From a virus (lineage: Duplodnaviria; Heunggongvirae; Uroviricota; Caudoviricetes): a DNA stretch of 36,538 nucleotides. A model generated the notes under the pieces. The model saw only the letters and a list, made by a program, of their open reading frames with translations, did no database searches and was not told where the DNA came from. The translations under genes were made by a program, and so were the position numbers. This document shows, piece by piece, positions 1,456 through 36,305 of the stretch (positions are counted from its first letter, which is position 1; the number at the start of each line of letters is the position of its first letter). The DNA lies in the IMG/VR virus record IMGVR_UViG_2654587996_000001, positions 1 to 36,538 of that record; one strand, given 5' to 3'.

Positions 1456-1582
1456 TGCCCTGTTATGTTTCAGTTATACTCGGGGATTAAGCTGGATTGC
1501 CTGCTGTTATATTCCCGGAATACTCAATGCTATTCAGCGCTTTACATATCAGAAAAATAGCAAGGATGTTTTCATTAGAATT

Positions 1583-1608: not shown

Positions 1609-1614
1609 GTATTG

Positions 1615-1869: not shown

Positions 1870-1904
1870 GTATATCCTCCTTATGCGGGAATACAGCCCT
1901 GCAA

Positions 1905-2087
1905 TCAGGGCTGGGTCGGGTCTTTTGGGAGCGGGGTTGCCGTTGTTGTTTTACTGAGTTTTTCCGCTGCTGCGTCATCAATTTTACGGCGGACATAATT
2001 TCGGATAGCTTTGTAGCCACCACTCACCAGATATAACGCGCAGACCACCGAGCAGAAATATAATAAAATAAGCTGTATAAATGTCAT
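1905..2087 (-). CDS. Small membrane protein (60 aa), one N-terminal transmembrane helix then a basic tail
   Basis: Hydrophobic N-terminus IQLILLYFCSVVCALYLV; GGAG 7 nt upstream of the ATG; 35-nt spacing to the next ORF suggests co-transcription. Confidence 0.5.
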   Translation of the reverse strand: MTFIQLILLYFCSVVCALYLVSGGYKAIRNYVRRKIDDAAAEKLSKTTTATPLPKDPTQP

Positions 2088-2223
2088 TATTCATCTCCAT
2101 TATTAATATGGTGTTGACATAGTTAATACCTGTTGGTTAAAAAGGCGTCCTGCATTTTTTGCTTTGGACATAACGACTTTTGCCGCCGGTTTCCTTGTTT
2201 TCCCTTTCCAGGCGGCATTTTTT

Positions 2224-4302
2224 TTATCCTGCTGACGGGGTATTCACTTCCACCACAATGCTGTCAATCAGCACCGGATATGTCGCAGCGCTGGTGATAT
2301 CAGTCACCCGTAATTTGTCTGCCGTAAACGTGCCAACCGGAGACTGAGACAGCATGAATGGTGTCCCGTCCTTACCATCAATGACCGGCGTCACCTCAAT
2401 ACTGTTGTTACCGGCAAAACGGAAGCCCAGCGTATGCCATTCGTTATTAAATGCACCGAATGACCCCAGTTTCGTGTTTTGCGCCGTATTGCCCTTGTGG
2501 TACATCACGTTAAGGTCTGTGGCATCGCTCTGAACGTAAAACGATGCCAGCAGGTTATGACCGGCATTACCTTCCAGAGTAACCCCTTGCGGCAGGGCAG
2601 AAACCGGCCAGTACAGCGCCATCGCGTACTGATTAGCCGTAAGCGTACCATCAACCTTAAACCGGCAACTGACAAGGCCACCTTTACCCAGCAGGTCCGC
2701 ACCATTACCGGCATCATGCTCAAGGTACCAGGAGGATTTGCCTGTTTCCTTGGTCAGTTTCATGGCCTTACCACTACCTGCTCCGGCATCATCCACGATT
2801 TCAGCCTTGCCACCTCCCGCGCTCCAGCCCTGTGGTGACAGCTGACCTTCTGATTCAGATGTCCGGTAAGCAAACAGCGTGCTCATCGTCGTGGTGTCAG
2901 CCGGTGGAGTGGACGGTGTATCCGGCGATGGTGTTGATGGGGAGTCAGGTGATGGCTTCTCATCCGGTGGTGTCACGGTCTGCCCGCCCATCAGTTCAGC
3001 CGTGCGCCCTGCATGGAGCAGAATAGCGGAGGCCAGACGGTCTGAAATAATGCCCCTGCGTGCCCATGAGCTGAAATGGCTGTCACGCTGTGTCGAGACA
3101 AAACTGCCCTGAGTACGGGATGCTGCACCATAATACCCGACAGCCACAATATCCGGGTCTTCCGCCGGAGCATTTGTTGGCGTGTTTGCGCCGTTTTCAT
3201 CTGTCAGGAACGGTACAAAGAAAATATTCTGTGCTTCCTTGCCTTTGTAGCCACCGTATACTGTCTCATATTTATCGGTGCCAGCGTTTTTCCAGTAATA
3301 CGTGGTATCACCGCAAATCCACGGCACCGTGGTGGCATTTCCGCTCACACACTGTGCAGCAAGTGAGGACAGGTCAGTCCTGAACTGCTGAACCATGGCC
3401 GTGAATAAACCGTTATGCTGCTGACTGCCTGAAGCAAGGTCTGCCTCGCCCTGCATCCATACCACCGCCAGCAGCCTGTTTTTCGGGTTCTTCGCCAGCG
3501 CCGCTTTTGTCCGGCTGACCATGTCCTGATACAGGGGTTTACCGGCACCCCAGCGTGCAGCGTCAGCGGATGCGCCACTGGCCTCACTGAATGTACCGTC
3601 GGCACCGGTGGTGAATGCAGAACCACCACGACAGCAGGGCACCAGAAGTATCCCTGCATTCTGCGGGATATACGACAGCAGCTTTTTGGCAATATGCAGC
3701 CCCTGACTGACACAGCCATACTGCCCCTTATTCAGGTCCGCTTTCGGATGATTAACACCGCTCATATCCTGTACATCATGCAGACAATGGTCAGCCGGAA
3801 TCACATCATTGTATGCACAGGCGTCTCCACCCGGCGTCACTGTACTGCGGCGTGCCAGCTGTTTAATGCGCGGGTCCGGGCGGTCATAAGAGTCCGGTAA
3901 CGGAAGCCCCTCACCGTAGGCCATGCCGTTGGACTGTCCGGCAAGCACAACCACGTAGTAATACTCCGGCTCTCTGTTGCCGCCACTCACACTGCCGGAA
4001 GACCCGGCGTTATCCGGTGCATTCCAGTCCGATGGGGTGAGCGTTCCGGCCACATCCGACGTAATGGGAATGACGCCGGTCACGCCAGAGCTGGTAATTT
4101 CTGCACTGGGGGTACCGGACACAGGCATTACCCATAATGGCTCTTTCGTGCTGAAGCGGATCACACAATCTGCAAAGGTGATCCCGCCTTTATTACCCGA
4201 AGGCCGGAAAGGGCTTTCAATAAATGCCACAGTGCCACCGGCAACCTTGACTGAAAACTCTCCGGGCATGGCGGAGAGCATTTTCCACTGGGAGTCTGAC
4301 AT
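2224..4302 (-). CDS. SGNH/SASA-family esterase domain protein with Pro/Ser/Thr linker and C-terminal beta-rich domain; candidate virion-associated receptor-modifying enzyme
   Basis: Motif VVVLAGQSNGMAYG (GQSN nucleophile block of sialate O-acetylesterase-like SGNH hydrolases); linker PPDEKPSPDSPSTPSPDTPSTPPADTTT; no N-terminal signal peptide; located just past the tail fiber genes. Confidence 0.7.
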   Translation of the reverse strand: MSDSQWKMLSAMPGEFSVKVAGGTVAFIESPFRPSGNKGGITFADCVIRFSTKEPLWVMPVSGTPSAEITSSGVTGVIPITSDVAGTLTPSDWNAPDNAGSSGSVSGGNREPEYYYVVVLAGQSNGMAYGEGLPLPDSYDRPDPRIKQLARRSTVTPGGDACAYNDVIPADHCLHDVQDMSGVNHPKADLNKGQYGCVSQGLHIAKKLLSYIPQNAGILLVPCCRGGSAFTTGADGTFSEASGASADAARWGAGKPLYQDMVSRTKAALAKNPKNRLLAVVWMQGEADLASGSQQHNGLFTAMVQQFRTDLSSLAAQCVSGNATTVPWICGDTTYYWKNAGTDKYETVYGGYKGKEAQNIFFVPFLTDENGANTPTNAPAEDPDIVAVGYYGAASRTQGSFVSTQRDSHFSSWARRGIISDRLASAILLHAGRTAELMGGQTVTPPDEKPSPDSPSTPSPDTPSTPPADTTTMSTLFAYRTSESEGQLSPQGWSAGGGKAEIVDDAGAGSGKAMKLTKETGKSSWYLEHDAGNGADLLGKGGLVSCRFKVDGTLTANQYAMALYWPVSALPQGVTLEGNAGHNLLASFYVQSDATDLNVMYHKGNTAQNTKLGSFGAFNNEWHTLGFRFAGNNSIEVTPVIDGKDGTPFMLSQSPVGTFTADKLRVTDITSAATYPVLIDSIVVEVNTPSAG

Positions 4303-4555
4303 CGTCTTTTCTGCCTGTTTCTGAATTAAACAGAGTCAGAATAACAACCGCTGATAAATATGTGTTTTGCGGAAATTCAAAAAAAGCGTCACGGTACTTT
4401 TTATGACGGAGCCGGTGAGGCAGGAACATAACGACAAAGGATGGACAGGCCAATATGATAACCGCATATTACCGGCTTATAATTTAATTAACGATTCATG
4501 ACGCGGCGGTCAGCACCTGAAAATATGCGTTATTTCAGACAACCCTTGCCTGTAT

Positions 4556-5128
4556 ATGGCGATAGTATTATTCCTGTTTTTATCATTGATTCACATGGTG
4601 ATGTTTATGCAACTGATTAATGTTAAACGATATTACCCGGAACACAAACCCTATGGTAATGATGTACAGTATTTTCAGAGTGAAGATGGTAAGGATTTCT
4701 ACGAGTCCCTGCCATTATTCACAAAAAAATATAAACTTTGCATAACACCAGACAGCGGCGTTATCTGCTCAATATCACAGGACGCCTCGGCACTGTATCC
4801 TGCGGGTTTTTCCGTGGTTGAGGCCGATGAACTCCCTGAAGGCACGGATATTTCAGGAAACTGGACGTTTGATAATGGCGTTATCTCCCGGCTTCCGGTT
4901 AACTACACCAAAAAAGCGGAAGCACAGCGCCAGTCATATCTTAATCAGGCATATGAAAAAATTAATGACTGGAGAACTGAGCTACAACTGGGCACGATCA
5001 GTGATGAAGACAGAGCAGCACTTACCCAATGGATGGCATACATCAGTCAGGTGAAGAAAATGGAACTACCCGCCATTAAAACAGAAGCTGAATTTAACGC
5101 CATTAAATGGCCTGAGCTGCCACAGTAA
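4556..5128 (+). CDS. Tail fiber assembly (chaperone) protein; real start probably internal, around 4595-4607
   Basis: C-terminal region DWRTELQLGTISDEDRAALTQWMAYISQVKKM resembles conserved Tfa/U-family C-termini. On the opposite strand from all other structural genes. Confidence 0.65.
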   Translation: MAIVLFLFLSLIHMVMFMQLINVKRYYPEHKPYGNDVQYFQSEDGKDFYESLPLFTKKYKLCITPDSGVICSISQDASALYPAGFSVVEADELPEGTDISGNWTFDNGVISRLPVNYTKKAEAQRQSYLNQAYEKINDWRTELQLGTISDEDRAALTQWMAYISQVKKMELPAIKTEAEFNAIKWPELPQ

Positions 5129-5131
5129 TAA

Positions 5132-5151
5132 AGAAGGCCGGAAGGCCTTCT
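5132..5151. terminator. Bidirectional terminator hairpin between convergent tail fiber and Tfa genes
   Basis: Perfect 8-bp stem AGAAGGCC / GGCCTTCT with GGAA loop, placed between the Tfa stop (5126-5128) and the tail fiber stop (5160-5162); U-rich flanks on both strands. Confidence 0.6.
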
Positions 5152-5159
5152 GAATATCA

Positions 5160-6041
5160 TTATATACTTGCAGCCGTCACCCATGCTCCATTTAACAGAT
5201 ACTGCAACGGCCGGTAATACACGCCGCCGACGTTATCTGCCGTATTCTTACCGACATCCTGTACTTTAATTCCGGTAAGAACATTGCCGCCCCCCAGATT
5301 CAGATCCCAGCTTTCCCATGTTCCGGGCATATGTGCGGTCACAGACCCCAGCCTGATACCCGTCACTGTTCCTGATGAGATAGTGATATCCTGCGTTCCG
5401 TCAAAGGCGACACCATTGATTTTGTGGGCGTTGGCCAGCCTGTTTGCTGCAACAGCCGTGCCGTTCGATGGCAGGGCATTCGCGGCCTTGTTTACCGTAT
5501 CCCGTAAACCGACGTTATCGATAAAAGCCCCTTTATCCGGAATGTCTGCGCCGTTCTGCTCCCTGCGCAGGTAATGGTTATCACCTTCGCTCCTGCTGTA
5601 AACATCCAGATTATTACGGGCGGTCCCCTTATTCTCCAGATCGGCCAGATTCTGATCCTTTGCCAGTGCATTAACGTCACCGGGACCAAGACTGTTTTTT
5701 GTGGCAAGCGTCCCCAGACCAAGATAACCACGGGCCAGACGCTGGGCCTCCGCACCGGCATCAGCAATTTCTTTCAGGTTATTTTTCCGGGAAAAGGCAT
5801 TCGCAGCGATAATGGCTTTAATGGACAGCGTAAGCTGGTTTAACTGCGCCTTATCCGGCTGGATATTGGCTTCAGCCAGAATATTCAGCAGTTCGGCCTG
5901 GAGAATATTCAGCCAGTCCTGACCGATCCAGCTGATACCTTTCTGTCCGTCACCTTCGGTAAACCAGGTGGTGGTATTACTCTGCGCCGGTGCCAGCGCA
6001 GGCATATTCGCCACGCCGGAATTATTATCAACATGAAACAT
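5160..6041 (-). CDS. Tail fiber protein (S-like), 293 aa
   Basis: Position after the baseplate genes; N-terminal [13 protein letters not shown] segment typical of tail fiber N-termini; Gly/Asn-rich C-terminal part. Confidence 0.65.
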
Positions 6042-8111: not shown

Positions 8112-8718
8112 TCTCCGGCACTCCTGTCTTACTGCCTTCGCCGTTATCATGATGCACATGACCGGAATAGGTGATCCCGGCAATAACCGCGTCTGACATG
8201 GTGAACAGTCCCTGAGATTTCCCCGTACCATCAAGCGCGAAATTCCCCTTAACATGCAGGTTCTTATTCACCGTCACATTGCCCGTAAAGGTGGCTTCCG
8301 GCGTATCCACCTGAACACTTTCATCGGCATAAATTTCCAGCGTCTTACAGGTCACGATGATCCGGCCGTCTTTTGTCAGACGTATGCGGTGCCCCTCATG
8401 GTGATACACGCCGGTGTCTCCGGCGGTGAGTCCGGTCGGGCGGCTGCGCCGGTCTTCCACCACAAGTACCACGGCCTGATCCCGCTGCCCGCCCAGACAG
8501 GCAAAAAAGGTTTCTGCGCCCGGCAGGGGCACACTGATCTGGCCGTACTGCTGGGGGCGCTCCACATCATCAAACGTTTCGCCGTCCATGCCGGTGAACT
8601 GCACATTCTGCATTTTCAGTTCGTCGTGTGTGCCGGTCAGAACACCCCGGCCAAACAGCAGACGAATACCGCGTGTCACCGGGGCAATCAGGCGGCTGAA
8701 CACTTCATCATTCATCAA
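8104..8718 (-). CDS. Baseplate assembly/spike protein V-like (Mu gp45-like)
   Basis: 204 aa; position between the hub-like protein and gp46-like protein. Confidence 0.6.
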   Translation of the reverse strand: MMNDEVFSRLIAPVTRGIRLLFGRGVLTGTHDELKMQNVQFTGMDGETFDDVERPQQYGQISVPLPGAETFFACLGGQRDQAVVLVVEDRRSRPTGLTAGDTGVYHHEGHRIRLTKDGRIIVTCKTLEIYADESVQVDTPEATFTGNVTVNKNLHVKGNFALDGTGKSQGLFTMSDAVIAGITYSGHVHHDNGEGSKTGVPENG

Positions 8719-9835
8719 AGCTGATCCCCTGTTTTTTCATCTGCTGGCGAATAAAGGCATCAACATCATCACCGGAACCACCGCCACGGCCCTTGCTGTC
8801 CGGCTCTGCCGGAACGATAAAGCCGTCACGCGGTGCCAGTACCAGCCGGGAGACTTCCCCGTTCTGCTCATCCAGTAAAAACTCCACCTGACAGACCAGC
8901 AGTTCGGTCTGCGCAGTACCAAAGCGCAGGGCCGAAACACCGGTCAGCAGATTGACATCCCATAACCGGCCATCGTCCCGGAACCAGCCGCGCACGGTGG
9001 CGGAAAACCGTTCTGAACGGGCAACCGCCCGGCGCATCTCACGCAGGGCACGCTGCCGTGCGCCGGTGGTGTCAATCTGATGATCGGCAAGGATGATTTT
9101 CGGCCGGTAACGACCGATCTGCTCATCACTGATGGTGGCCACAGGGGCTGCCAGCCGGGCGGCCGACTCACTGTCTCCCTGTTTACCCCCGCCGCGTCCG
9201 TGCCCCCGGACACGGTATTCGCTGTATCGTCCGCGCCAGTCCGTGTTGTAGTCTGCATCAAGCAGGTTTTCCCCCAGCACCAGTCTGTCCGTCTGCTGGT
9301 TTCCCGCCTGAGTGAACACCAGATCGCCGTCAGCATTGCTGGTCACCAGCACCCCGCGATGCCGGGCTGCACGGGTCAGCGCATCTGCCACGGTTTCTGA
9401 ATTTTCCAGTGTAAAAGAGACAAAGGGACGGGCCGCACTGTCATCATTCACCTGCCAGCGCACGTTTATCCCGAAGGGCGCACATAAATCTGCGGCAATC
9501 TGCGCCAGCGTCCGGTTTCGCCACTGGCTGCCGGGGTGAACGGCAGCACAGTCCACCAGGTCACCGGTTTTATCCCGTCCGCTGATGGTGATCTGATGAC
9601 GGGCTGCACTGATACGCTGACTGACCTGATCCAGCCAGCCACTGACCACGGTCTGCCCGTTGATCCTGAGCGTCAGGGACTGACCGCTCCGCAGGGCGGA
9701 CGGGATACGCTCGCCGGGCAGCATCAGCCCCAGCTCAAACGACCCGGCCAGATGTTCCAGGGAGCGGCGGACGCTGACCGTCAGCCACCCGGAAAAAATA
9801 CTGCCGCCGATATACAGTTCAATCCTGCTGCTCAC
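8708..9835 (-). CDS. Tail/baseplate hub protein (Mu gp44, gpD-like)
   Basis: 375 aa, syntenic position after the DNA circulation protein. Confidence 0.5.
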   Translation of the reverse strand: MSSRIELYIGGSIFSGWLTVSVRRSLEHLAGSFELGLMLPGERIPSALRSGQSLTLRINGQTVVSGWLDQVSQRISAARHQITISGRDKTGDLVDCAAVHPGSQWRNRTLAQIAADLCAPFGINVRWQVNDDSAARPFVSFTLENSETVADALTRAARHRGVLVTSNADGDLVFTQAGNQQTDRLVLGENLLDADYNTDWRGRYSEYRVRGHGRGGGKQGDSESAARLAAPVATISDEQIGRYRPKIILADHQIDTTGARQRALREMRRAVARSERFSATVRGWFRDDGRLWDVNLLTGVSALRFGTAQTELLVCQVEFLLDEQNGEVSRLVLAPRDGFIVPAEPDSKGRGGGSGDDVDAFIRQQMKKQGISFDE

Positions 9836-11177
9836 TGATCACCTCCACACTGCGGCCCCCCGGAACAAAAACCGGATCGGGGATGTTGTTCCGGCGGACA
9901 AAATACTGCCAGCGGCGGCTGTTGCCGGTGGCCCGGTACAGCGTGACCAGTGCCGGTTCGGTGGTGCGCACCATGACCTGAGAGGCACCGGGAAGATGTA
10001 CGCTCCGTGTGGTCAAATCTTCTGTCAGCGCAAGTCTGGCATCCCGTAATGCAAGGGCGGTGCCGGTATAGCCCTGCGCGGACAGATCCAGCACCTGTTG
10101 TTCCATGGCATCACTCAAATCCCGGTTGATACGCTGCACATCAGCAGAACTTTCCAGCCAGGCGGGTCTGCCCGCCCGGTCATTATCCTGAACGTGCGTC
10201 GTATCCTGCCGGATGACCTGATCCAGCAGTTTTCCGACCGTCTGCGCCTGCGACACCAGGGTTGCGCCCTGCATGACGGTACGCAGCAGGCGGATATTTT
10301 TCTGTGCCGCAGGCGTCAGACCAATCAGACGCTGCGGATCATCCTGTTCGCTGAGGGTGTAACGCAGGGAAGAAAGTGTGCGGTACAGCTGCGGCATGGC
10401 CTGCTCTGTCATGCTGTTACGGTTTGTGTCCAGGCTGCCGGATGGTGTCCCGGGCTGGCCGGTCAGTGACAGGGACGGATCGCCGGGCAGCCCCGCCAGC
10501 ACGGCAAACATGCCTGCCAGCGATTCAGCCATGCGACGGGGCGCATTAATCAGGGCCGTGGCATTGCCTTTCAGGGCCACAAAGCTGGCCGTAAAGGCAC
10601 TGATATCCTGCACAATCCCCATCCCCGAAACGGCATTTTCCAGCGCATCAATTTTGTCGCTGATGGTGTCGGTCATGGCCTGCACATCATGCAGGCCGTC
10701 TGAAATCACCGTCCAGCCGTCTGAAAGTGTGTTAAACAGCTGATTCATTGCTGAACCGCTTTTCTGCCCCAGCGCAGCTGCCGTATCTTCTGCCACCGAG
10801 GGTGCGGTATCGTCACTGGCGGGGATCACGTTGATCGTGAACTCAACCGTTCCCTGTTCGCTGGCGTTATAACGGCTTTCAAAGCTGTTTATCAGCACGT
10901 TTAACGTGCCGTAATCCGGGTGCATCAGTTCACCGGCACCGGGTGCCCGCAGCGCATCACGCAGGCGGCTTCGCTGCGTCTGAAGATCGTCTCCGGTCAC
11001 CAGAACCGTGAATGTGAACTCCGGGAGTTTTGGTCCTAAATCATCCGCACCGCCGCTTTCACGCAGCGGATATTCACGGCGCACAATGTTACGTCCGCCC
11101 CGTTCCCGCTGCTCCTGATAAACCAGGAACGGCACGCCACGAAAGGAGCCACGCCCCGGCGTGTCAGTAGAGGCCAT
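9819..11177 (-). CDS. DNA circulation protein (Mu gp43/P-like)
   Basis: 452 aa immediately downstream of the tape measure gene; overlapping start. Confidence 0.5.
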   Translation of the reverse strand: MASTDTPGRGSFRGVPFLVYQEQRERGGRNIVRREYPLRESGGADDLGPKLPEFTFTVLVTGDDLQTQRSRLRDALRAPGAGELMHPDYGTLNVLINSFESRYNASEQGTVEFTINVIPASDDTAPSVAEDTAAALGQKSGSAMNQLFNTLSDGWTVISDGLHDVQAMTDTISDKIDALENAVSGMGIVQDISAFTASFVALKGNATALINAPRRMAESLAGMFAVLAGLPGDPSLSLTGQPGTPSGSLDTNRNSMTEQAMPQLYRTLSSLRYTLSEQDDPQRLIGLTPAAQKNIRLLRTVMQGATLVSQAQTVGKLLDQVIRQDTTHVQDNDRAGRPAWLESSADVQRINRDLSDAMEQQVLDLSAQGYTGTALALRDARLALTEDLTTRSVHLPGASQVMVRTTEPALVTLYRATGNSRRWQYFVRRNNIPDPVFVPGGRSVEVISEQQD

Positions 11178-19511: not shown

Positions 19512-19573
19512 ACCGGCAGCATAAGCCGGGTATTTTTGGGGCTGGTTTTGCGGGACTTCAGAAAGTGCTGACA

Positions 19574-26669: not shown

Positions 26670-27000
26670 TCGTGGCCGCCTTGCTGATTTGTGAAATGAG
26701 TTGCAGGATGCGTTGCTGGTTTGCCAGCACCAGACGGGCTTCGTCCCGTTCACGCACAAGCACATGATTATTGTCCTCAAGGCGCTGCGTCTTCTGGTGC
26801 ATTCCCCATACCACGGCAGCCAGCACGCTCATCACCCCCAGCGCCGCCATACAGCCTCCGGCAATCAGGGCCGGTAAGGGATTGTTCACCGCAGCCACAG
26901 CACACCCCGCAGCAGCACAACGGCACACAGCAGCGCAATCATGAGCGGTCGCCAGAAGCGGTTCAGACTTTCGGCAAATCGTAACGACATAACCATTCAT
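26500..27000 (-). CDS. Inner-membrane spanin candidate
   Basis: Transmembrane segment LPALIAGGCMAALGVMSVLAAVVWG followed by a charged helical region; overlaps the lysozyme 3' end. Start uncertain. Confidence 0.5.
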   Translation of the reverse strand: MNGYVVTICRKSEPLLATAHDCAAVCRCAAAGCAVAAVNNPLPALIAGGCMAALGVMSVLAAVVWGMHQKTQRLEDNNHVLVRERDEARLVLANQQRILQLISQISKAATNEKQQNMQHSEEQQSIVRRSLATVPAASVPVPDDVADRVRRAVCEIRAGEAGADPR

Positions 27001-27463
27001 CCGCCGAACGGCGGGCCTCAAGACCGGGGAGTTTTACCCCCTTTGAATAAATCCAGCGGATATACTGCTTACAGGACGCGGGCATCTGCCCGGCATTGAT
27101 AAGGCGCAGGAGCGTGGAGTTGCGAAAGTTCGTTTCACCGGCCTGGAAAATCCAGGAGGCCAGCGCCACCGTCTGACCACGGGTAAGCGGCACCTGAACA
27201 TGACGATCGATAGCCGCAAAGGCCCATTTCATGTCCTTTTCCAGCAGCGCCAGACATTCTTCATCAGTTTTTGTCATCCCCGGTTTCACATCCGGGCCGG
27301 TATGGCCGTAACAGATGGTGAGGGTGCCGGTGGGATCAGTGTACGTGGTGTTTTCTTTCCCTTCCCAGTAGCCGGTGTAGTGCGTGGCAATGGTGAACGT
27401 CCCGGCTCCGGCCAGAACAAGGGCAATCAGCTTTTTACGCAGGGGCGCGGGGAGTTTTGGCAT
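26963..27463 (-). CDS. SAR endolysin (T4-lysozyme-like glycoside hydrolase)
   Basis: Catalytic-region pattern YWEGKENTTYTDPTGTLTICYGHTG (Glu/Asp/Thr); N-terminal Gly/Ala-rich signal-anchor LIALVLAGAGTFTIA. Confidence 0.8.
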   Translation of the reverse strand: MPKLPAPLRKKLIALVLAGAGTFTIATHYTGYWEGKENTTYTDPTGTLTICYGHTGPDVKPGMTKTDEECLALLEKDMKWAFAAIDRHVQVPLTRGQTVALASWIFQAGETNFRNSTLLRLINAGQMPASCKQYIRWIYSKGVKLPGLEARRSADEWLCRYDLPKV

Positions 27464-27534
27464 TGTTACGCTGTCTCATGGTGTTCTCTGAGTCAGCGTA
27501 ACCGTGGAAAAAAGGGGGCAGGATTTGCGGAATA

Positions 27535-27957
27535 TCAGAAAAGCCGGGGCTGCGTGCGTTCCTGATGCAGGCGACGCTGGTTGCGGATAACGGAGTAAAT
27601 CTGCGTCTCTGACATCTGGTAGTGGCGGCGCAGGGTTTCAATTTTTTCGCCCTGGCTCCAGCGGGAAAAAATTTCATTATTGCGCAGTTCGGTGAAAAGG
27701 GATTCACCGACCGGGAGATAATAACCACGCCCGCCCATGTACCCGGCCTGTGCAGCCGCAACTTTACGGGCAAGCATTCCCGCCTGAGCAGGTTCAATCC
27801 CCTGACGGTGCAGTTCAGCACTGATCACATCAACCAGGTCCCGCAGCGTGCCGGGCCAGTTTTTTTTCAGCTCATCATCAGGAATGTCATCCAGACGGTC
27901 AATCAGCGCGTGCAGCTGTTCGCTGTCACCAAACATGCTCATCTGTGTTTCAGCCAT
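27535..27957 (-). CDS. Mor/C-family transcription activator
   Basis: 140 aa, positioned immediately upstream of the lysis gene as Mu C is; conserved C-terminal region IYSVIRNQRR. Confidence 0.65.
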   Translation of the reverse strand: MAETQMSMFGDSEQLHALIDRLDDIPDDELKKNWPGTLRDLVDVISAELHRQGIEPAQAGMLARKVAAAQAGYMGGRGYYLPVGESLFTELRNNEIFSRWSQGEKIETLRRHYQMSETQIYSVIRNQRRLHQERTQPRLF

Positions 27958-27999
27958 ACCCGCCTCCGGTCATCATTACACAAGGCAAGTTTAAAATAA

Positions 28000-28023
28000 A
28001 AATCCCGCGCTGTGGCGGGATTT
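28000..28023 (-). terminator. Rho-independent terminator at the end of the early operon
   Basis: Perfect 9-bp stem AAATCCCGC / GCGGGATTT with 6-nt loop, followed on the minus-strand RNA by UUAUUUUAAA; starts 4 nt after the gemA-like stop. Confidence 0.65.
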
Positions 28024-28027
28024 GGGG

Positions 28028-28537
28028 TTAACGGGGGAATGATTTTTCATACAGCCTGCAAACGCGCTCATAACTCATCACTGTATGTGCTGGCATCCCC
28101 AGTACAGACAGCATTTTGCGGCGGTGCCAGCGTTTGAGACGCTCCAGCACATCAGAGGCCATCGCGGGGTGTTGCTCCAGCCACTGCCAGTTAGCCACAC
28201 CTTCGCCGCCGTTCTGCGCGGCCGTCTGCGATTTCACCCAGTGGTTAAGGGCTGTTTCCCCGCCATCAGAGATAAAGCCCTGCCGGTGCATCACCTTCCA
28301 GATGGCGCGAATTTTGGCGGTCACCGTACCCGGTTTTAAGGCCCGGTTAACCGGTTTCTGACGCACTTTAAAACCGCGTTTTTTGAAAACATCCAGCACG
28401 CGGGATAACTCATCCGGTGACATATCCCGGCAACTGGTTTTGCCGGTGGCTTCCAGTAGTACGGATGTGTAGATCTCATCATCCAGGGCAAGCTCGCGCT
28501 TTGCCACATGAATAGCGGATATCAGTTTCCCTCTCAT
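28028..28537 (-). CDS. GemA-like regulatory protein (Mu gp16 family)
   Basis: 169 aa; N-terminal region LISAIHVAKRELALDDEIYTSVLLEATGKTSCRDMSPDELSRVLDVFKKRGF resembles the GemA family pattern; last gene before the early terminator. Confidence 0.55.
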   Translation of the reverse strand: MRGKLISAIHVAKRELALDDEIYTSVLLEATGKTSCRDMSPDELSRVLDVFKKRGFKVRQKPVNRALKPGTVTAKIRAIWKVMHRQGFISDGGETALNHWVKSQTAAQNGGEGVANWQWLEQHPAMASDVLERLKRWHRRKMLSVLGMPAHTVMSYERVCRLYEKSFPR

Positions 28538-28830
28538 GCTGTATCAACACTCCTGCTGATATGATAGATATTATTTTCCCGATCGAGCTGAACCCGATAC
28601 TCCGGAGGAATCACAAAAATATTAAAACCATCATCAGTTTTTATTCTTGAGTAGTATTCCCCCTTATGATATCTGGCAAGTGCATTAATCAGAGAAGTCG
28701 TCGCCAGCCCAATCAGGTATTTTTTATGAAAAATACTGATAACTTTCCGGCACAGCCATCGTGTAATGACGAATGCACCGAAAAACGATGTGATATATAA
28801 ACACCAGAACAACTGCGAACTACTGTCCAT
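28534..28830 (-). CDS. Small membrane protein (98 aa), AT-rich
   Basis: N-terminal transmembrane helix LFWCLYITSFFGAFVITRWL; AAGGAG upstream; 4-nt overlap with gemA-like gene. Confidence 0.45.
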   Translation of the reverse strand: MDSSSQLFWCLYITSFFGAFVITRWLCRKVISIFHKKYLIGLATTSLINALARYHKGEYYSRIKTDDGFNIFVIPPEYRVQLDRENNIYHISRSVDTA

Positions 28831-28845
28831 TATCTTTCTCCTTAT

Positions 28846-28980
28846 TCAGTCTTCTGCGACATTCGGCACAGTCATCAGGGCTTTCAAATGTATCCGGCTC
28901 GCGATTATGAGCCAGATATAACCACCGCCTACATATACTGATATTATCGCCTGTTTTAAAAAATGATGCTTCTTAGCCAT
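28846..28980 (-). CDS. Small hydrophobic peptide (44 aa), below the ORF-track size cutoff
   Basis: Hand translation MAKKHHFLKQAIISVYVGGGYIWLIIASRIHLKALMTVPNVAED; stop TGA 13 nt before the next ATG; weak ribosome-binding site. Confidence 0.3.
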   Translation of the reverse strand: MAKKHHFLKQAIISVYVGGGYIWLIIASRIHLKALMTVPNVAED

Positions 28981-29008
28981 CAGAGGGCGCGCCCATCCAG
29001 CGGGTAGA

Positions 29009-29383
29009 CTATTCATTTACTTTATCCTCCATACTGGACAGAATCATCTGTATTAATGTCGGGCGTGGAGATATACGCATTTCATTAAGCGTCTGAAGGG
29101 CAGCAACAGCTGCCTGTTTATCGGTGCCTTTGGCAATTTCCGCAAGAGAATGCACAATCCATAACGGACTTAACGCCACGACTGAATCCAGAATCATGTC
29201 ATCCATAATAATTTCTGGCACATCCAGTTTGTCATACTCCTTATCCATAAAAGAAACGATTTTTTCCACATCTTCCGGTTTCATGCCTCCGGCGATGAGA
29301 ATTTTTCTATATTCATAAGACGATCTTAATTCAATACTCATATTCATCTCCTGTAACGCTGACAAGGACGTAATTTTTCTCAT
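29009..29383 (-). CDS. Hypothetical protein (about 110-124 aa), AT-rich
   Basis: AGGAG directly upstream of tandem ATG codons near 29338-29346; no recognisable motif. Confidence 0.45.
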   Translation of the reverse strand: MRKITSLSALQEMNMSIELRSSYEYRKILIAGGMKPEDVEKIVSFMDKEYDKLDVPEIIMDDMILDSVVALSPLWIVHSLAEIAKGTDKQAAVAALQTLNEMRISPRPTLIQMILSSMEDKVNE

Positions 29384-29565
29384 TTATGTTTTCCAGTAAT
29401 ACGGATATATATGTCGATAAGAAGATTCATAATAAACAGGAAGAGCGACATCCTGATAAAGAACCATATATCTGGCATCATGGACAGATTTCCTGTAACC
29501 GAAAATATAAAACCAACCACCCCAACTGGAACGATAATTGCGAAAAGTATAAGTCGCTTTATCAT
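29380..29565 (-). CDS. Small membrane protein with two transmembrane segments (61 aa), AT-rich
   Basis: Hydrophobic segments LILFAIIVPVGVVGFIFSV and WFFIRMSLFLFIMNLLIDI; 4-nt overlaps with both neighbours. Confidence 0.45.
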   Translation of the reverse strand: MIKRLILFAIIVPVGVVGFIFSVTGNLSMMPDIWFFIRMSLFLFIMNLLIDIYIRITGKHK

Positions 29566-30113
29566 GGCGTTAACTCCCGTAATACAGCGTCCTCGGCGGT
29601 CCGGCGACGGTAATAAACTGCGTGAGCAGAATGTTCAGATATTCCAAACTTTTCGCCAATTTCCCGGAATGACAGACGGCGTGGGTAATCGGAATCACGC
29701 AGCGCACGTATAAGACGTACATCATCATCAGATATGCGCGTGCCGGGGCGTAACTCTCCGCACTTTGTTAATCCGGCACCAATCATTCCTGCCCGACATC
29801 TGACAGAATCTTTATTACGTCCGAGGTATTCTCCCATTTGCTGGCAGGTCATTGTTCTGGCATTTTTTCGAATAAACTTATCTTCATCAGGTGTAAATCT
29901 GGGGTGTTTATATTTCAGTAACTCCGGGTATGAACTGCGCAATACACCAGTCCGGTTATATACAGCCCAGACAGTTCTTTTTATTCTGGCAGCAATATCC
30001 TTAACCGGGGTGGATGAATAAAGCGCAATCAGCAGCGCATCTTCTTCAGGTATCCACGGACGGACATGAGCGGGGGCGCGACCTTTTCGTCCCATGGGTT
30101 GTAATTTCATCAT
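29562..30113 (-). CDS. Putative DNA-binding protein with three tandem helix-turn-helix-like segments
   Basis: Repeated pattern of an acidic patch followed by a basic helix, for example WIPEEDALLIALY..IAARIKRTVWAVYNR and ISDDDVRLIRAL..SFREIGEKFGISEHSAHAVYYRRR. Confidence 0.4.
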   Translation of the reverse strand: MMKLQPMGRKGRAPAHVRPWIPEEDALLIALYSSTPVKDIAARIKRTVWAVYNRTGVLRSSYPELLKYKHPRFTPDEDKFIRKNARTMTCQQMGEYLGRNKDSVRCRAGMIGAGLTKCGELRPGTRISDDDVRLIRALRDSDYPRRLSFREIGEKFGISEHSAHAVYYRRRTAEDAVLRELTP

Positions 30114-30116
30114 GCA

Positions 30117-30632
30117 TCACCCCCTGACTCGCTTTTCAGCAGCATAAAACTCATCAGACAGAATTTCGGTCATTTTCCGTTTTGCGGAATCATCTTCGCA
30201 CTGAAGATAAATCACATTGTCAACGCAGAACCAGTTCACGGGACCATACAATATTGCTGAGAAGTCAATGCCCAGCCAGAACAACAGGGCATCGGTTCTG
30301 GCATACGTGACGGGCGAATATTCACGCCACAGAATGTTCAGTTCATCAGAGGCAACACGCAGGGTTTTAGGGATACGTGATGTGCGCGGCGTGCAGCTCC
30401 AGCCATTCGACGCAGTCGGTTTTCTCCATAAGTCGCGATGAAAAGGATATTTGTCATCCATAAAGCGCAGCCCCTTAAAACAAAATCCACTGATACCGGA
30501 TACAAATACCGACCGGCACGCAACATTCAGCACGGCCTCAAGGCGTTTTGCCTCATCCTTAACTTTCTGGCAGTCCTGCTGGTATTTTTGCCACGCAGCC
30601 AGCGCGGAAGGGTTTGATGTTTTAAAGAACAT
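30117..30632 (-). CDS. Hypothetical early-region protein (171 aa)
   Basis: Tightly packed in the early operon; no recognisable motif. Confidence 0.4.
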   Translation of the reverse strand: MFFKTSNPSALAAWQKYQQDCQKVKDEAKRLEAVLNVACRSVFVSGISGFCFKGLRFMDDKYPFHRDLWRKPTASNGWSCTPRTSRIPKTLRVASDELNILWREYSPVTYARTDALLFWLGIDFSAILYGPVNWFCVDNVIYLQCEDDSAKRKMTEILSDEFYAAEKRVRG

Positions 30633-31165
30633 TACGCCACCTCCGCAGATATCCCGGCAGGCGCTGCTGTCCGGTCAACAATCAGGTAGCGCAGAACACG
30701 CGCGGTGATATTCCAGCCGCTTAAACCGCAGATAATGACACCCAGGCGAATGTCGATATACGCCATCACAAACTGGGGTACGCCTTCTTTCATGGCCTGC
30801 TCATCAACTTCAGCCACCACATAAACGGTTTCACAGGTCAGAACGCCCTGAGCAAATTCCCACGCCATCGACGGAATATCATGCCCCTCAATCCACGGCA
30901 GGGATTTTCTGAAGCTGCACCACTGAACATCATCAGCCGCACATTCCTGGCTGCATTTGCGACGAACCGGCTGCACCGGGCGGGGACGCGGAATATCATA
31001 AAAACCGTTACGGTCCGTCAGCACGCCTGCATCGACTGCATCACGCAGAAAATAAACCATGGAGGATGGCGGCATATTCATTTTTTCTGCCAGAGAACGG
31101 CTGGTCAGACGGCCAGAAAAACGCAGCCAGTTTTTAACCCCTTCAAGCACTTTTGCATCAATCAT
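30632..31165 (-). CDS. Hypothetical early-region protein (177 aa), possible N-terminal winged-helix
   Basis: Operon packing; N-terminal helical segment; Cys-rich middle region. Confidence 0.4.
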   Translation of the reverse strand: MIDAKVLEGVKNWLRFSGRLTSRSLAEKMNMPPSSMVYFLRDAVDAGVLTDRNGFYDIPRPRPVQPVRRKCSQECAADDVQWCSFRKSLPWIEGHDIPSMAWEFAQGVLTCETVYVVAEVDEQAMKEGVPQFVMAYIDIRLGVIICGLSGWNITARVLRYLIVDRTAAPAGISAEVA

Positions 31166-31808: not shown

Positions 31809-32339
31809 TTATTTATTCAGTCCGGCGTCCTGTTCAAAAGGCTCGACATAAAAACTTTCAGCGCCTTTATTCACCTTAATACCGGCAATGCCTTTCACTG
31901 CATCCGGCTCCGCCAGGACGGCTTCCTTGTTCACTTCCTCTTTCGTGCGGATGAATCGCTCAAGCCCCATACGGCGCAGCATTTCAATCACACCTTCCAC
32001 ATCACGGCTGACGCTGCATGATGGCGTTCCCAGCCGCCATGACACCGTTCCGGTGGTCAGATTGACTGTTTTGGTTTTGCCGCCGTTCGTCAGCTCATCA
32101 CGGTTGGTTTTGCACCAGTCCTGAATCCCTTTAAAAAGCACTTTGATTTGCTTTTTAAGATTTTCAATCTGCGGCGTATAACGGGCGGTGATTTCAGCCA
32201 CCTCGTCATTCATTGCCGTTTCCAGGCGCAGCGCCTCTCGCTGAATATCGCCCAGGGTGCGGATATCACGGCTGACTTCTTCGCGGGTCTGCGGTGCGGC
32301 CTCGGCTGCGGCCTTTAATTTTGTAACGCGTTTTGCCAT
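31809..32339 (-). CDS. gam: Gam-like host-nuclease inhibitor (Ku-like DNA end-binding protein)
   Basis: 176 aa; motifs such as TREEVSRDIRTLGDIQREALRLETAMNDEVAEI and NRDELTNGGKTKTVNLTTGTVSWR match the recalled Mu Gam pattern. Confidence 0.75.
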   Translation of the reverse strand: MAKRVTKLKAAAEAAPQTREEVSRDIRTLGDIQREALRLETAMNDEVAEITARYTPQIENLKKQIKVLFKGIQDWCKTNRDELTNGGKTKTVNLTTGTVSWRLGTPSCSVSRDVEGVIEMLRRMGLERFIRTKEEVNKEAVLAEPDAVKGIAGIKVNKGAESFYVEPFEQDAGLNK

Positions 32340-32985: not shown

Positions 32986-33213
32986 TTAGCTGACTTGTTT
33001 TGCACCAACAGAACGGCATATTCCACTGTAAACCTCTGTCGCACCTTCGCGATCAAGTCCGGCAGATATCACCATTCGCGTGCGGTCATTAAATTCAAAA
33101 AGTAAATCGCCACATTCTTTATTTTCGGCCAGTGAAATCACTTTCACGTTATCGAAATTCACCAGGTAAAAGCGTCCGTAGATATCAGGAATATTAAATG
33201 CAGCCATAATCAC
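32986..33213 (-). CDS. Small early protein (75 aa) in the position Mu uses for kil
   Basis: Immediately downstream of B with a 4-nt overlap; position only. Confidence 0.35.
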   Translation of the reverse strand: MIMAAFNIPDIYGRFYLVNFDNVKVISLAENKECGDLLFEFNDRTRMVISAGLDREGATEVYSGICRSVGAKQVS

Positions 33214-34142
33214 ACCTGTGAGAGTAATTCAGGGTTGGTATAAACCTCTTTAAAGGCCGCATTAATATGTTTTTCTGTCAGCGCGGCACCTTCACCGCTG
33301 GCGGTGATCCACGCCTGGTTAAGCGTATGTGTCAGAACGCGTAAGGCTCCCGGCTTTTCAGCGATAGCCTGCATGACAGCCAGCTCGGCCTCACCACTAA
33401 TCCCCCATGCCCTGGCAATAGCCAGCACATCCGCCTTTTTGGCCTTGCGAAGTTGTTTTGTACGGGCAAGACGGCTGAACAGGCGCGATAAATCATCAAC
33501 GGTGCGGCGTCCACCCTTAAACAGTCCGCGCGGGTTACCAATAAGCACCATCCCGATCCCCGTGGCGTCCTGGATTGCACGCAGTTGTTCCAGACCGTCA
33601 ATACCAAGATGATCCGCCTCATCAACAATCACCAGTCCACGAGTTCCCATCAGGCGACGGCGGATGGCGCGGGATAACGCCCCCTTGTTCGCGCGGGTGT
33701 AATCAATCCCCAGTTCCTCTGCCAGCTCCAGCATACACTCCGTGACGCTGGAATGCGCGGGCGACAGGGTGATCATCCAGGTGTTCGGTTGCTCCTGACA
33801 GTAATTGCGGGCCGTGGCCGTTTTACCCACACCCGGTACGCCCACAATGACGTTAATACAGCCCATCAGGCGAACCGCCTGAAACAACGCGCGCAGCTCC
33901 TGGACTGTCTGCGTTTCCACAAACTGCGGCGGTTCCGGCAGTGCGCTTTGTTTATTCCAGTTCTCATACCAGGAACGCAGGGAAGCAGCCACAGCAGCGT
34001 TATCGCCTTTATATTTTCCCTTACGGAAAGCCGATAATGTGCCGTCGGAAATTCCCGCCTCTCTGGCGATGGCATACTGCGTCAGCACGCCGCCATCAAT
34101 AAGTTCATCAATGGTCTTGATTACATCGTTTATATCGGTCAT
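33210..34142 (-). CDS. B: Transposition ATPase MuB-like (AAA+ target DNA activator)
   Basis: Walker A GVPGVGKT and Walker B LVIVDEADHL; 310 aa; immediately downstream of the transposase. Confidence 0.85.
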   Translation of the reverse strand: MTDINDVIKTIDELIDGGVLTQYAIAREAGISDGTLSAFRKGKYKGDNAAVAASLRSWYENWNKQSALPEPPQFVETQTVQELRALFQAVRLMGCINVIVGVPGVGKTATARNYCQEQPNTWMITLSPAHSSVTECMLELAEELGIDYTRANKGALSRAIRRRLMGTRGLVIVDEADHLGIDGLEQLRAIQDATGIGMVLIGNPRGLFKGGRRTVDDLSRLFSRLARTKQLRKAKKADVLAIARAWGISGEAELAVMQAIAEKPGALRVLTHTLNQAWITASGEGAALTEKHINAAFKEVYTNPELLSQV

Positions 34143-34217: not shown

Positions 34218-36305
34218 TCAGGCCAGCGGATCATTTTCTTTTAATTTCGCTTCCAGCAGCTGCAATCCCCGCTGGAAGTTACGCTCGTATTCGTCATCAG
34301 GTTCATCATCAACGGCAGGTCTCTGAACGGCCACCGTATTACCTACCGGGCGGTATATGTTTTCCAGCCATGGCTCCTGTGGCTTGTGCTCCAGCACGTT
34401 GACAACCTCATCCTCGGCATCACGGATTTTTTCCTCTGCGCGTTTACGCATACCTTTAAGGCGCTGCTGCTGTTTGTAGTATTCCGCGCTGACCGGGAAG
34501 GCTTCGCGTTTATTGCCGTCCCATACCGCCTCGCAAATCACACTGCCATCCAGGCGACGCACGGTAATTCGCTCAGCATCATGAATGTCATAGCTGATAA
34601 GCACCTTACGACCATGCTCGTCACGCAGCTCGGGCGCGTAGTAAATATTATTCAGCCAGCGTATTTCACAGCGTCTTACAGGGCGCTCCACCATCGGCCG
34701 GAACATATCCCGCAGCTCAACATCGGACAGCCATTCAATTTCCGTGTCCTCTTCCGCCAGGCGTTTTTTTCTGAACTCCGCCGGGCTGTAATGTTTACCG
34801 TTCGGCTTCATGGGTAATTCATCGTGCGGCCGGTTGTTGTACCACTCAACGCCGTCACGAATGGCATCAATCAGTTCAGACCAGGACGGTAAATCACGCA
34901 TCGCTGACTGCTGCCGGGCGTTCAGCCGCTTGCCCTGTTGCAGGGCACTGAATGCCGAGCGTAAATCGCGGTTGGTTTTACGTAACGTCTCGCGATCTGC
35001 ACCTTTCCCGAAATAGGTGCGGTATTTACGGGCTATGCGCATCGGTAATGTGCGGTTAAGCCGTTCGATAATGCCCCGTCCCTGCGGGTTACCGGCAATC
35101 CCGGTCGGGTGATTAATCCCCAGTCGCGGCAGTATCCCCACAATCTCCTTATCCAGGACGTCGGCGGTTTCCCCCGAGCCATTATCCGAGTAATACAGAA
35201 ACGGTTTGCCGTGATGTCGAATACCGTGCTGTATGGCACCGGCTACGGCGAAAACATTTTCAGCCAGGTCAAGGCTCCAGCCCACCACAAAGCGCGTGCC
35301 GCCGTCGATAACAAAGGTCACTTCCGGTGCAAATGGCCGCCCGTGAACCGGGTGTGCGCATTTCAGCTTCATGCCGTGACCGTCACCAATCCAGACATAA
35401 TTCACCGGCATTTTTGACCAGTCGCGGCGAGTGAACCCCTCAAGCTGGCGGTATTCACTGCCGGTAACCCGGCCTTTTTGTTTCACCACTTCCGGCAGTT
35501 TCTTCATTGCGCGGCGAATGGTGTCATAAGAGGGCATGATATCGAGCATATAAGGCTCATCAGCGTGCCGGTGCTGCCATTCAGCGACAAAATCCTCGTA
35601 AGCCTCGGTCATTGGTCGGCCGTTTGACTGGCGATACTGCGCCAGAAACTCGGGCAGCCAGTTAATATCTTCGGCTTTTATTTCCTGACGTTTACCCGGT
35701 GCCAGTAAAAGCAGGCGTTCAGCGGCGTTCTGCGCCTTGTTAAAGGCCGCAATCCAGCGTTTCAGCGTGATTTCACTCAACGCGCGGCTGTTTCCCTTTT
35801 TGGCGTTCGCCGTCTCAACCATTGCCACAATGCGCTCGTCCAGTTGTGATCGTGCCAGGCTGTTAACGAGGAACCGGATAGCCTTAGCGCAACTAAAGCC
35901 GGGTTGTTGCGCGATTTTCAGCGCCTCGCTGACGATCGCTATTCGTGCCTCTGCCACTTTACGTTGGTTTTCAGTCAGGGCATTGAGGCGTTCGACCATC
36001 AGTTGGGGTGATCCGCGATATGCCTCCACCGCATCAACCACGGCAGGTGAGCGTCTGGCCTTTGTCACCACCGGAGCCGGTGATTCATCGGCTTTTTGCG
36101 TCATCAGTTGCAGGGCGTAGCGTTCACGTAATGCCTGCTGCGTCACTTCAGGTAAACAGTCGATGCTGTATTCAAAACCTTTAGTGCCTTCCTGGCGGCG
36201 TCTGCTGGTTTCGCTGGTTGCATACTTCCTGATTGAATAGCGGACGCCTTGCTCCGTTCCCGGCATTCCCGGTAATCCAACCAGCTCTTTAACTGAAGCA
36301 AACAT
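34218..36305 (-). CDS. A: DDE transposase MuA-like
   Basis: 695 aa; catalytic-core region WIGDGHGMKL...SDNGSGE; position between ner and B. Confidence 0.85.
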   Translation of the reverse strand: MFASVKELVGLPGMPGTEQGVRYSIRKYATSETSRRRQEGTKGFEYSIDCLPEVTQQALRERYALQLMTQKADESPAPVVTKARRSPAVVDAVEAYRGSPQLMVERLNALTENQRKVAEARIAIVSEALKIAQQPGFSCAKAIRFLVNSLARSQLDERIVAMVETANAKKGNSRALSEITLKRWIAAFNKAQNAAERLLLLAPGKRQEIKAEDINWLPEFLAQYRQSNGRPMTEAYEDFVAEWQHRHADEPYMLDIMPSYDTIRRAMKKLPEVVKQKGRVTGSEYRQLEGFTRRDWSKMPVNYVWIGDGHGMKLKCAHPVHGRPFAPEVTFVIDGGTRFVVGWSLDLAENVFAVAGAIQHGIRHHGKPFLYYSDNGSGETADVLDKEIVGILPRLGINHPTGIAGNPQGRGIIERLNRTLPMRIARKYRTYFGKGADRETLRKTNRDLRSAFSALQQGKRLNARQQSAMRDLPSWSELIDAIRDGVEWYNNRPHDELPMKPNGKHYSPAEFRKKRLAEEDTEIEWLSDVELRDMFRPMVERPVRRCEIRWLNNIYYAPELRDEHGRKVLISYDIHDAERITVRRLDGSVICEAVWDGNKREAFPVSAEYYKQQQRLKGMRKRAEEKIRDAEDEVVNVLEHKPQEPWLENIYRPVGNTVAVQRPAVDDEPDDEYERNFQRGLQLLEAKLKENDPLA

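Follow-up and report, generated by a model that had tools for sequence, protein, structure and literature searches.

In phage Mu, transcription passes through two related activators, Mor (gp17; structure 1rr7) for the middle genes and C (gp21; 9l0x and 9vw8) for the late genes, which are 37% identical to each other. Proteins of the Mor/C family are small, about 100–150 amino acids long, acidic in their N-terminal half and basic in the C-terminal one, and a set of residues in their β-strand linker is invariant (G70, G71, Y75, P77 and G79 in C) (PMC2582627). Four promoters that are annotated in the Mu record, Plys, PI, PP and Pmom, carry the half-site cATAA exactly 24 nt upstream of their −10 hexamers (TAGACT, CAAACT, TATCCT and TAAGAT), and this spacing fits the published position of the C binding dyad, which is centred at −43.5 (PMC2582627). 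A simpler arrangement is known from SuMu, phiMhaMu2 and 3927AP2, in which it has already been remarked that C and the middle genes are missing beside lys (PMC4553209). Here we describe a locus with one Mor/C-family gene in a Mu-like prophage and compare it with these systems.

The window, that is the whole stretch of DNA analysed here (36,538 nt, IMG/VR record IMGVR_UViG_2654587996_000001), is a nearly complete Mu-like prophage of E. coli that is read on the minus strand, as judged by tblastn with all Mu proteins. In this way Mu counterparts were mapped from ner, A, B, gam, gp11, gp12, gemA and lys through to com and mom (Table 1); genes for the terminase, head, tail and baseplate are found in the interval from lys to com/mom, and by tblastn all structural genes are intact. 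The extreme left end of the prophage is outside the window, so that c and part of ner are missing. Apart from the Mor/C-family gene itself, tblastn found no counterpart of Mu mor, gp18, gp19, gp20 or gin in the window, and an Rfam scan of the window gave no family at threshold. The region is 85–87% identical to inserts annotated as 'Mu-like phage' in two Stx-converting phages, and at the locus it is 84–87% identical to the relatives of the EHEC type (E. coli O157 prophage Sp18 type). Among 5,426 complete E. coli genomes the gemA-activator-lys layout was found in 230, in which the PGAP names of the three products are 'gp16 family protein', 'Mor transcription activator family protein' and 'lysozyme'. 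The identical 140-aa activator protein is recorded for at least 1,000 contigs.

Table 1. Positions of genes, predicted promoters and other elements in the window
Feature	Position	Strand	Basis or description
ner	cut at 36538	-	tblastn with Mu proteins
A	34218-36305	-	tblastn with Mu proteins
B	33210-34142	-	tblastn with Mu proteins
gam	31809-32339	-	tblastn with Mu proteins
gp11-like	30632-31165	-	tblastn with Mu proteins
gp12-like	30117-30632	-	tblastn with Mu proteins
gemA homolog, last early-region gene before the terminator	28028-28537	-	Pfam PF06252, E=5e-30; 44% identity to Mu GemA
Intrinsic terminator	27990-28023	-	9-bp stem, 6-nt loop, U-tract; MFE, shuffles, relatives
Candidate -10-like hexamers downstream of the terminator	TAAACT 27993-27988; TGTAAT 27980-27975	-	sequence reading
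Shine-Dalgarno GGAGG	27963-27967	-	5 nt before activator ATG at 27957
Sole Mor/C-family gene, C-type late transcription activator (by sequence)	27535-27957	-	140 aa; PF08765, PHROG 532
Predicted Plys	27495-27541	-	box TTTCTG-ATATTC-CGCAAA (27541-27524), 24 nt, -10 TACGCT (27500-27495)
lys (endolysin)	26963-27463	-	PF00959 Phage_lysozyme, E=2e-37; 40% identity to Mu lys
Predicted PI	19518-19564	-	box TTTCTG-AAGTCC-CGCAAA, 24 nt, -10 TATGCT
Predicted third late-type promoter	4338-4383	-	box TTTTTG-AATTTC-CGCAAA, 23 nt, -10 TATTCT
Esterase cargo gene, 692-aa ORF behind the third box	2224-4302	-	Pfam SASA + DUF6645
com and mom	883-37	-	tblastn with Mu proteins

We asked how many members of the Mor/C family the prophage encodes. 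A six-frame translation of the window gave 839 stop-to-stop fragments of at least 25 aa, and when these were searched by phmmer --max with Mu Mor, Mu C and the protein encoded between gemA and lys (the activator), the activator ORF was the sole family match. It matches PF08765 (Mor) with E=6.7e-31 and 106.9 bits (cut-off 24.9) over profile positions 2–107 of 107, and PHROG 532, 'late transcriptional activator', with E=1.4e-44. A custom family HMM, built from 11 diverse members (28–100% identity) and run by hmmsearch --max, detected no second member in the window, the runner-up (E=0.08) being an antisense fragment of the same gene. The same HMM found one copy per locus and no second one in ~40 related loci, and a single copy also in a related insert that reaches the left end of the prophage (L002). 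Thus the original prediction of a single Mor/C gene between a gemA-like and a lysis gene agrees with the PF08765, GemA and Phage_lysozyme matches, and the search of the Mor family that it had proposed, in which a second member would have told against it, revealed none in the window or its relatives. The ORF at 32989–33228 gave a marginal phmmer match of Mu Mor (E=0.06), which was reproduced neither by the family HMM nor by Pfam. The two paralogs and the middle operon (Pm, gp18–gp20 and C) that make up the three-tier cascade of Mu are not seen as such in the window: there is one paralog, and mor, gp18, gp19 and gp20 are absent by tblastn and HMM.

The original prediction had left unsaid which of the two paralogs is kept, and the sequence points to C. 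The activator shares 40% identity with Mu C (136 residues, 111 bits) but only 28% with Mu Mor (59 bits), and among its PDB matches Mu C scores E=2e-28 compared to E=2.5e-11 for Mor. It has the length of Mu C (140 aa), over which the 40% identity extends, and the same position directly upstream of lys, with 71 bp from its stop codon to the lys ATG. Its residues G75, G76, Y80, P82 and G84 are the linker residues of the family and do not vary when the protein is aligned with Mu C and Mor, and the C-terminal helix-turn-helix region SETQIYSVIRNQRR aligns to SQPQIYQIIARQRK of Mu C. The charge pattern is also that of the family, since residues 1–70 contain 13 D+E and 7 K+R whereas residues 71–140 contain 7 D+E and 11 K+R. 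Identity, structure matches, length, position, linker residues and charge pattern together indicate that the ORF is, on sequence grounds, the ortholog of Mu C and not of Mor, and that the missing paralog is Mor. By analogy with Mu C, the activator would be expected to bind the predicted boxes described below and to recruit σ70 RNA polymerase. With Mor the activator shares the Pfam family and the place as next gene after gemA; here, however, there is neither a Pm-type target promoter nor a separate C gene that a Mor protein could activate. The gene also differs from Mu C in what precedes it, as gemA and a terminator are found directly upstream instead of a Mor-dependent promoter and gp18–gp20. 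Its Shine-Dalgarno sequence is well kept, the GAGG being invariant in an alignment of 14 relatives.

Relatives of the locus were gathered by contig look-ups and by a scan of IMG/VR, and their activators are 100, 96, 84, 69, 66, 56 and 50% identical to that of the window. Relatives from Escherichia, Salmonella and Citrobacter with as little as 50% protein identity still have gemA, then a short spacer, a single Mor/C gene and lys, in that order. We then compared the activator by tblastn with 50,697 phage records, 48 of which matched. Two Mor/C places per record were found among these 48 only in Muvirus (Mu, D108, SfMu, Mu-like Yersinia phages and other members), while Mu-like phages of Pasteurella, Pseudoalteromonas, Shewanella, Vibrio, Burkholderia (the BcepMu group), Klebsiella and Ralstonia have one; in HS6, for example, a single 'late transcriptional activator' is annotated between gemA and the endolysin gene. 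This layout, in which a lone Mor/C gene stands between gemA and the genes for lysis and a middle operon is lacking, links the window to SuMu, phiMhaMu2, 3927AP2, BcepMu, HS6, Shewanella MuM16, Vibrio martha and Sp18 (PMC4553209). BcepMu differs in that its activator gene, like mor in Mu, abuts gemA without a spacer, whereas in the clade of the window a conserved terminator lies between the two genes. Having one activator is thus, by the survey of the 48 records, the usual condition, which had been noticed before. This means that the two activators of Mu, which had been taken as the baseline in the original prediction, are not general, and that the single C-type arrangement is real but ordinary, normal for Mu relatives and less significant than had been implied. 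The prophage family, like most relatives of Mu, never had or no longer has Mor. The relay from Mor to C is accordingly a peculiarity of Muvirus, which corrects a Mu-centred expectation.

Next to the activator gene, within the 70-bp spacer between gemA and the activator ORF, lies a hairpin (28023–28000, minus strand) of the sequence AAATCCCGC-CACAGC-GCGGGATTT, followed by the U-tract TTATTTTAAA. The stem (AAATCCCGC paired with GCGGGATTT) has 9 bp with 5 G-C pairs, the loop has 6 nt, and the stem starts 4 nt past the gemA stop codon (28030–28028). The RNA folds with an MFE of −13.5 kcal/mol (z=−2.99 versus dinucleotide shuffles), and 2 of 200 shuffles fold as well. A scan of the 5-kb region for consensus terminators found 6 where 5.1 were expected, the gemA hairpin having the longest stem; as this is no enrichment over shuffles, the scan alone is weak evidence, and support was hence sought in the relatives. 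The hairpin is the same or nearly so in six lineages (the window, L004, L007, L022, L028 and L039). In L037 and L040–L044 extra DNA follows gemA and the arms are others, and still a stem-loop with a T-run is present (−7 to −11 kcal/mol); the hairpin of L045 is different and strong, and that of L006 is weak. What is kept among the relatives is thus the folding and not strict column-wise covariation. Across the 40-nt stretch that spans hairpin and T-run the lineages are 75–95% identical, compared to 66–78% in the activator coding sequence and only 46–69% in the leader beside the activator ATG. Because it is more conserved than the activator coding sequence, the hairpin/T-run element appears to be under constraint. 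L012 and L036 seemed to be without the left hairpin arm, which in L012 proved to be due to a 445-aa transposase ORF inserted in the hairpin; in L022 the sequence upstream of the hairpin differs and the rest of the spacer region is kept. The claim that an intrinsic terminator separates the early operon from the activator gene is therefore borne out by the fold and its U-tract. The element resembles the t9.2/Pm dyad of Mu in being a GC-rich hairpin flanked by runs of A and T, directly after the last early gene and upstream of the unit with the late activator. In Mu, however, mor and gemA share 4 nt and t9.2 comes only after mor, whereas here the spacer with its terminator separates gemA from the activator gene; moreover, there is no significant sequence similarity to t9.2/Pm and no Mor to bind, and a −10 in the register of Pm is found only in the window's own subtype.

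We also asked whether the C-type activator has recognisable targets. The regions upstream of lys and of gene I have a common 27-nt pattern, TTTCTGAnnTnCCGCAAAnCCnGCCCC, which had no match in 100 shuffles. A strict scan (the 18-bp box TTTCTG-N6-CGCAAA followed 23–25 nt later by TAnnnT, with at most 1 mismatch) found exactly three sites in the window, all on the phage sense strand and all intergenic, compared to none in 100 shuffles. They lie before lys, before gene I, whose ATG follows 6 nt after the −10 of the predicted PI, and before the esterase cargo gene (Table 1). At the predicted Plys the spacing of 24 nt is counted from the end of CGCAA to the −10 hexamer, and the stop codon of the activator gene falls inside the left half of the box. 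The same strict scan was run on 13 related loci with up to 10 kb of flank; the upstream flanks of the scanned relatives range from ~2.3 to 23 kb. Ten of them have exactly two forward sites, always with a spacing of 24 nt: one 420–490 nt after the activator start, right behind the activator stop codon, and another 8.3–8.7 kb downstream of the activator gene, before gene I. In L006, whose flank stops short of gene I, only the first site is seen, and L004 and L045 have no box site at the scan threshold. The Plys box and spacing are present in 11 of the 13 loci. No site on the reverse strand or upstream of the activator gene was detected in the window or the 13 relatives. The box can be written as TT(T/A)CT(G/A)-N6-CGCA(A/G)(A/T), 24 nt (23 in one case) before TAnnnT. 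As at the targets of Mu C, the predicted half-site ends 24 nt before the −10 hexamer and no −35 element is seen, but the operator consists of CGCAA(A) and TTTCTG here and of cATAA and TTAT in Mu. These data point to a predicted, conserved late regulon of the C type that has the promoter geometry of Mu and an operator sequence of its own. Unlike in Mu, no matching box was found at the P or mom operons of the window; as the lys/I type of box is missing at the P and com-mom operons, the late regulon is not fully accounted for. Relaxed scans for box promoters of the P and com/mom operons gave background only (10 matches versus 6.4 expected).

If Mor is absent, how is the activator gene expressed? 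No Mor-dependent middle promoter was found for it, there being no Mor paralog and no significant similarity to Pm, and no σ70 promoter between gemA and the activator ATG passes a consensus scan. Our preferred explanation, to which we assign a probability of about one half, is that the gene encodes the sole late activator of an Sp18-type Mu-like prophage without Mor and without a Mor-dependent middle operon, and that it is expressed by read-through of the terminator. The activator gene would then be transcribed as the attenuated distal part of the early message: RNA polymerase that had started at the early promoter would meet the terminator after gemA, and only the fraction that reads through would reach the activator gene. 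Proximity of a stop codon to a terminator stem is associated with reduced termination efficiency, and ribosomes that finish gemA would cover the left arm of the hairpin and may in this way help read-through. A leaky terminator would keep the activator low and make it late, and its slow build-up could provide the delay that Mu gets from the Mor-to-Pm step. From read-through with a single activator, the cascade would thus run from early genes to activator to late genes, with the terminator as a gate in place of a second activator. The read-through model needs no extra part.

A different possibility, clearly less probable than read-through and which we hold only tentatively, is that the activator gene forms a separate 'middle' unit with a weak promoter overlapping or just past the terminator, induced by an early function outside the Mor/C family or by changes in replication or topology. 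The cascade would then still have three tiers, its first activator being a non-homologous one. Candidate elements can be named, GCCACA (−35-like, in the hairpin loop) 17 bp before TAAACT, or TTTTTA 16 bp before TGTAAT, and every lineage has a TAnnnT hexamer 4 nt past its T-run (TAAACT, TATAGT, TATATT or TATACT). The segment from hairpin to hexamer shows the 75–95% identity given above against 66–78% in coding DNA, and this conservation could reflect a promoter overlapping the terminator and not terminator function alone. However, TAnnnT is expected by chance in the AT-rich tail of a terminator, none of the candidates is a σ70 consensus site (the best reach 7–8 of 12 positions), and TGTAAT, which stands in a Pm-like register (dyad centre −43.5), is absent from the 84%-identical EHEC type (L023/L028). 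In L007, L037 and L039–L044 a hairpin is also present downstream of the activator gene, so that hairpins bracket the gene on both sides, as they do C in Mu; with it the gene looks self-contained in these relatives and could own a promoter, which speaks against read-through. The hairpin and U-tract in front of the gene likewise look efficient, against the read-through that we infer. Among the early genes, no candidate activator is conserved apart from the core ones (B, gp11, gp12 and gemA are conserved in all relatives whose flank reaches them). A constitutive promoter would be lethal in lysogens, and the spacer has no motif in common with the c-ner operator region of a full-length relative apart from A/T 7-mers. 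In a more specific form, modelled on Mu and in our opinion improbable though not far-fetched, the hairpin would be a composite of terminator and promoter through which a non-Mor early function or a replication or topology signal turns on the activator, so that a middle step is kept. Since the t9.2 hairpin of Mu is at the same time the Mor-binding dyad of Pm (PMC4287176), there is precedent for a terminator that also serves as a promoter element. By sequence, however, the intergenic region is not significantly similar to Mu Pm (local score 13 versus a shuffle mean of 12.9). We rejected homology of the spacer to Pm, which looks Pm-like by eye, because this score equals the shuffle mean and TGTAAT is missing in the EHEC subtype; the parallel is one of architecture only.

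Three further explanations compete with read-through as the route to a working late programme, or deny that there is one. The C-like protein might activate its own gene through a half-site-like sequence, CCCCAAATCC (28027–18), which overlaps the end of gemA, and so amplify a trickle of read-through to a switch. The sequence is one position off the Plys box CCGCAAATCC, and the upstream regions of L004 and L006 each share a short word with their own Plys region. We nevertheless consider such autoregulation quite unlikely: if one mismatch is allowed, the window has 26 copies of the 10-mer versus 15.7 expected, the left half of the box is absent (TCCCCC versus TTTCTG), the conserved TAnnnT is 28 nt away and not 24 nt, and neither the window nor any of the scanned relatives gave a site upstream of the activator gene in the strict scan. 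Furthermore, upstream of the hairpin the sequence of L022 differs, yet the remaining region is kept. The candidate CCCCAAATCC was dropped for its wrong spacing, its missing left half and the lack of a site in relatives. Even less probable is a hidden activator. The original prediction had offered a choice between a cascade reduced by one step and a second, unrecognised activator, for example the HTH-repeat protein encoded at 29562–30113, which would then play the role of Mor without being homologous to it. This product is indeed an early-region protein that matches phrog_323, 'transcriptional regulator, D5-like' (E=1.2e-51), and it has weak HTH matches in Pfam, below threshold. But it has no profile similarity to Mor/C (hhalign probability 1.6%), and its gene is absent from 8 of 13 relatives (L004, L006, L007, L038, L039, L040, L044 and L045), which keep gemA-activator-lys and, all but L004 and L045, the late boxes at threshold. 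The gene adjoins, and lies partly inside, an accessory stretch of low GC (43–49% across the gene, 35–44% in the block just downstream and ~55% in the flanks). As an obligatory partner of the activator the protein is not credible, and of the two options the shorter cascade stands as the best reading, while the hidden activator, unrelated to Mor/C and missing from 8 of the 13 relatives, falls away. The least probable explanation of all, which we regard as barely tenable, is that the prophage is a degenerate Mu in which a deletion has removed mor together with the middle operon, leaving it unable to carry out its late programme. Compared with Mu, it does lack the interval mor-Pm-gp18-gp19-gp20, and the hairpin of L012 carries the transposase ORF of what is apparently an insertion sequence. 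Yet the layout recurs with intact ORFs in relatives of 50–100% protein identity from three genera, together with conserved late boxes that match it; the window has all its structural genes intact; and the Mu-like phages with a single activator include isolated, viable ones. The related prophage Sp18 was also judged intact (PMC2669165).

In the Sp18-type prophages of E. coli, Shigella, Salmonella and Citrobacter the late genes would thus be run by a single C-type activator. What the present analysis adds is the predicted late regulon, with an 18-bp box in constant spacing to the −10 before lys, gene I and, in the window, the esterase cargo gene; new in this clade is the conserved terminator in front of the sole activator gene. 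The practical value is modest and consists in better annotation and promoter prediction for a prophage family that is common in pathogenic E. coli. The way in which the activator gene is expressed across the conserved terminator would reveal how these phages time their genes when they have no middle activator. Finally, the single-activator layout could be the ancestral state, from which Pm of Mu arose when C was duplicated into mor.

The predicted C-type late promoter boxes are not confined to lys (Plys) and the protease/scaffold gene I (PI): a third one precedes a gene encoding an esterase, so this cargo gene appears to be wired into the phage late regulon. Its product combines SASA (sialate O-acetylesterase; E=4e-14) with DUF6645 (E=2.7e-68), a domain pair probably similar to that of the NanS-p esterases of Stx phages. 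The gene has the tail-fibre genes on one side and com/mom on the other, and a DUF826 ORF comes next after it. Apart from this ORF, the stretch of ∼1.1 kb that separates com from the esterase gene (window 1087-2223) contains no ORF above 101 aa, and Rfam gave no match there.

Features of the window and of a related Mu-like prophage locus (L012)
Feature	Sequence	Position	Strand	Remark
DUF826 ORF	window	1615-1869	-	next after esterase gene
Esterase cargo gene	window	2224-4302	-	692-aa ORF; SASA + DUF6645
Third predicted C-type late promoter box	window	4383-4338	-	upstream of esterase gene
Tail-fibre assembly gene	window	4556-5128	+	strand opposite to S-like gene
S-like tail-fibre gene	window	5160-6041	-	
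Transposase ORF	L012 (IMG/VR UViG_646311913_000007)	8595-9932		445 aa; exactly within gemA/activator terminator hairpin

The search for lys/I-type boxes came up empty both upstream of com/mom (window 884-1100) and inside the N gene (window ∼10100-10300), which in Mu carries PP. GATC sites cluster in the region upstream of com, including two copies of TCGATCG, and the region also holds an inverted repeat of 7 bp (ATTTGTT-N10-AACAAAT).

At gene I, only 6 nt separate the predicted PI -10 hexamer TATGCT from the ATG (window 19523-19509), and there is no Shine-Dalgarno sequence. An ATG 6-7 nt 3' of the hexamer is kept in six related prophage loci (L007, L028, L037, L039, L040 and L044). This arrangement predicts that the gene I mRNA would be leaderless. 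Mu differs: its PI promoter feature, as annotated, stops 12 nt short of the gene I ATG, and a ribosome-binding site is annotated for the gene itself.

The TGA that ends the activator gene falls inside the left half of the predicted Plys box (TTTCTGA; window 27535-27541). The activator gene-lys interval of the window contains no hairpin, in contrast to Mu, where a hairpin follows C, and to L007, L037 and L039-L044, where a terminator-like hairpin is present 3' of the activator gene (such as ACCGGC-GTAT-GCCGGT and then a T-run). On the other side of the gene, the transposase insertion in L012 has replaced the left arm of the terminator and split the early operon and the activator gene apart; the L012 activator protein is otherwise 100% identical to that of the window.

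The early region includes an AT-rich block (window 28540-29565; 35-44% GC versus ∼55% in the flanks) which is variable or missing among the relatives and is thus probably an accessory insertion. Its four small ORFs have no assigned function (PHROGs 17269, 1988 and 19804).

Finally, the tail-fibre assembly gene and the S-like gene converge on the palindrome GAAGGCCGGAAGGCCTTC (window 5128-5163), and tblastn detected no gin invertase in the window. The host-range region thus resembles the invertible G segment of Mu, but in a form that seems to be fixed or organised in another way.
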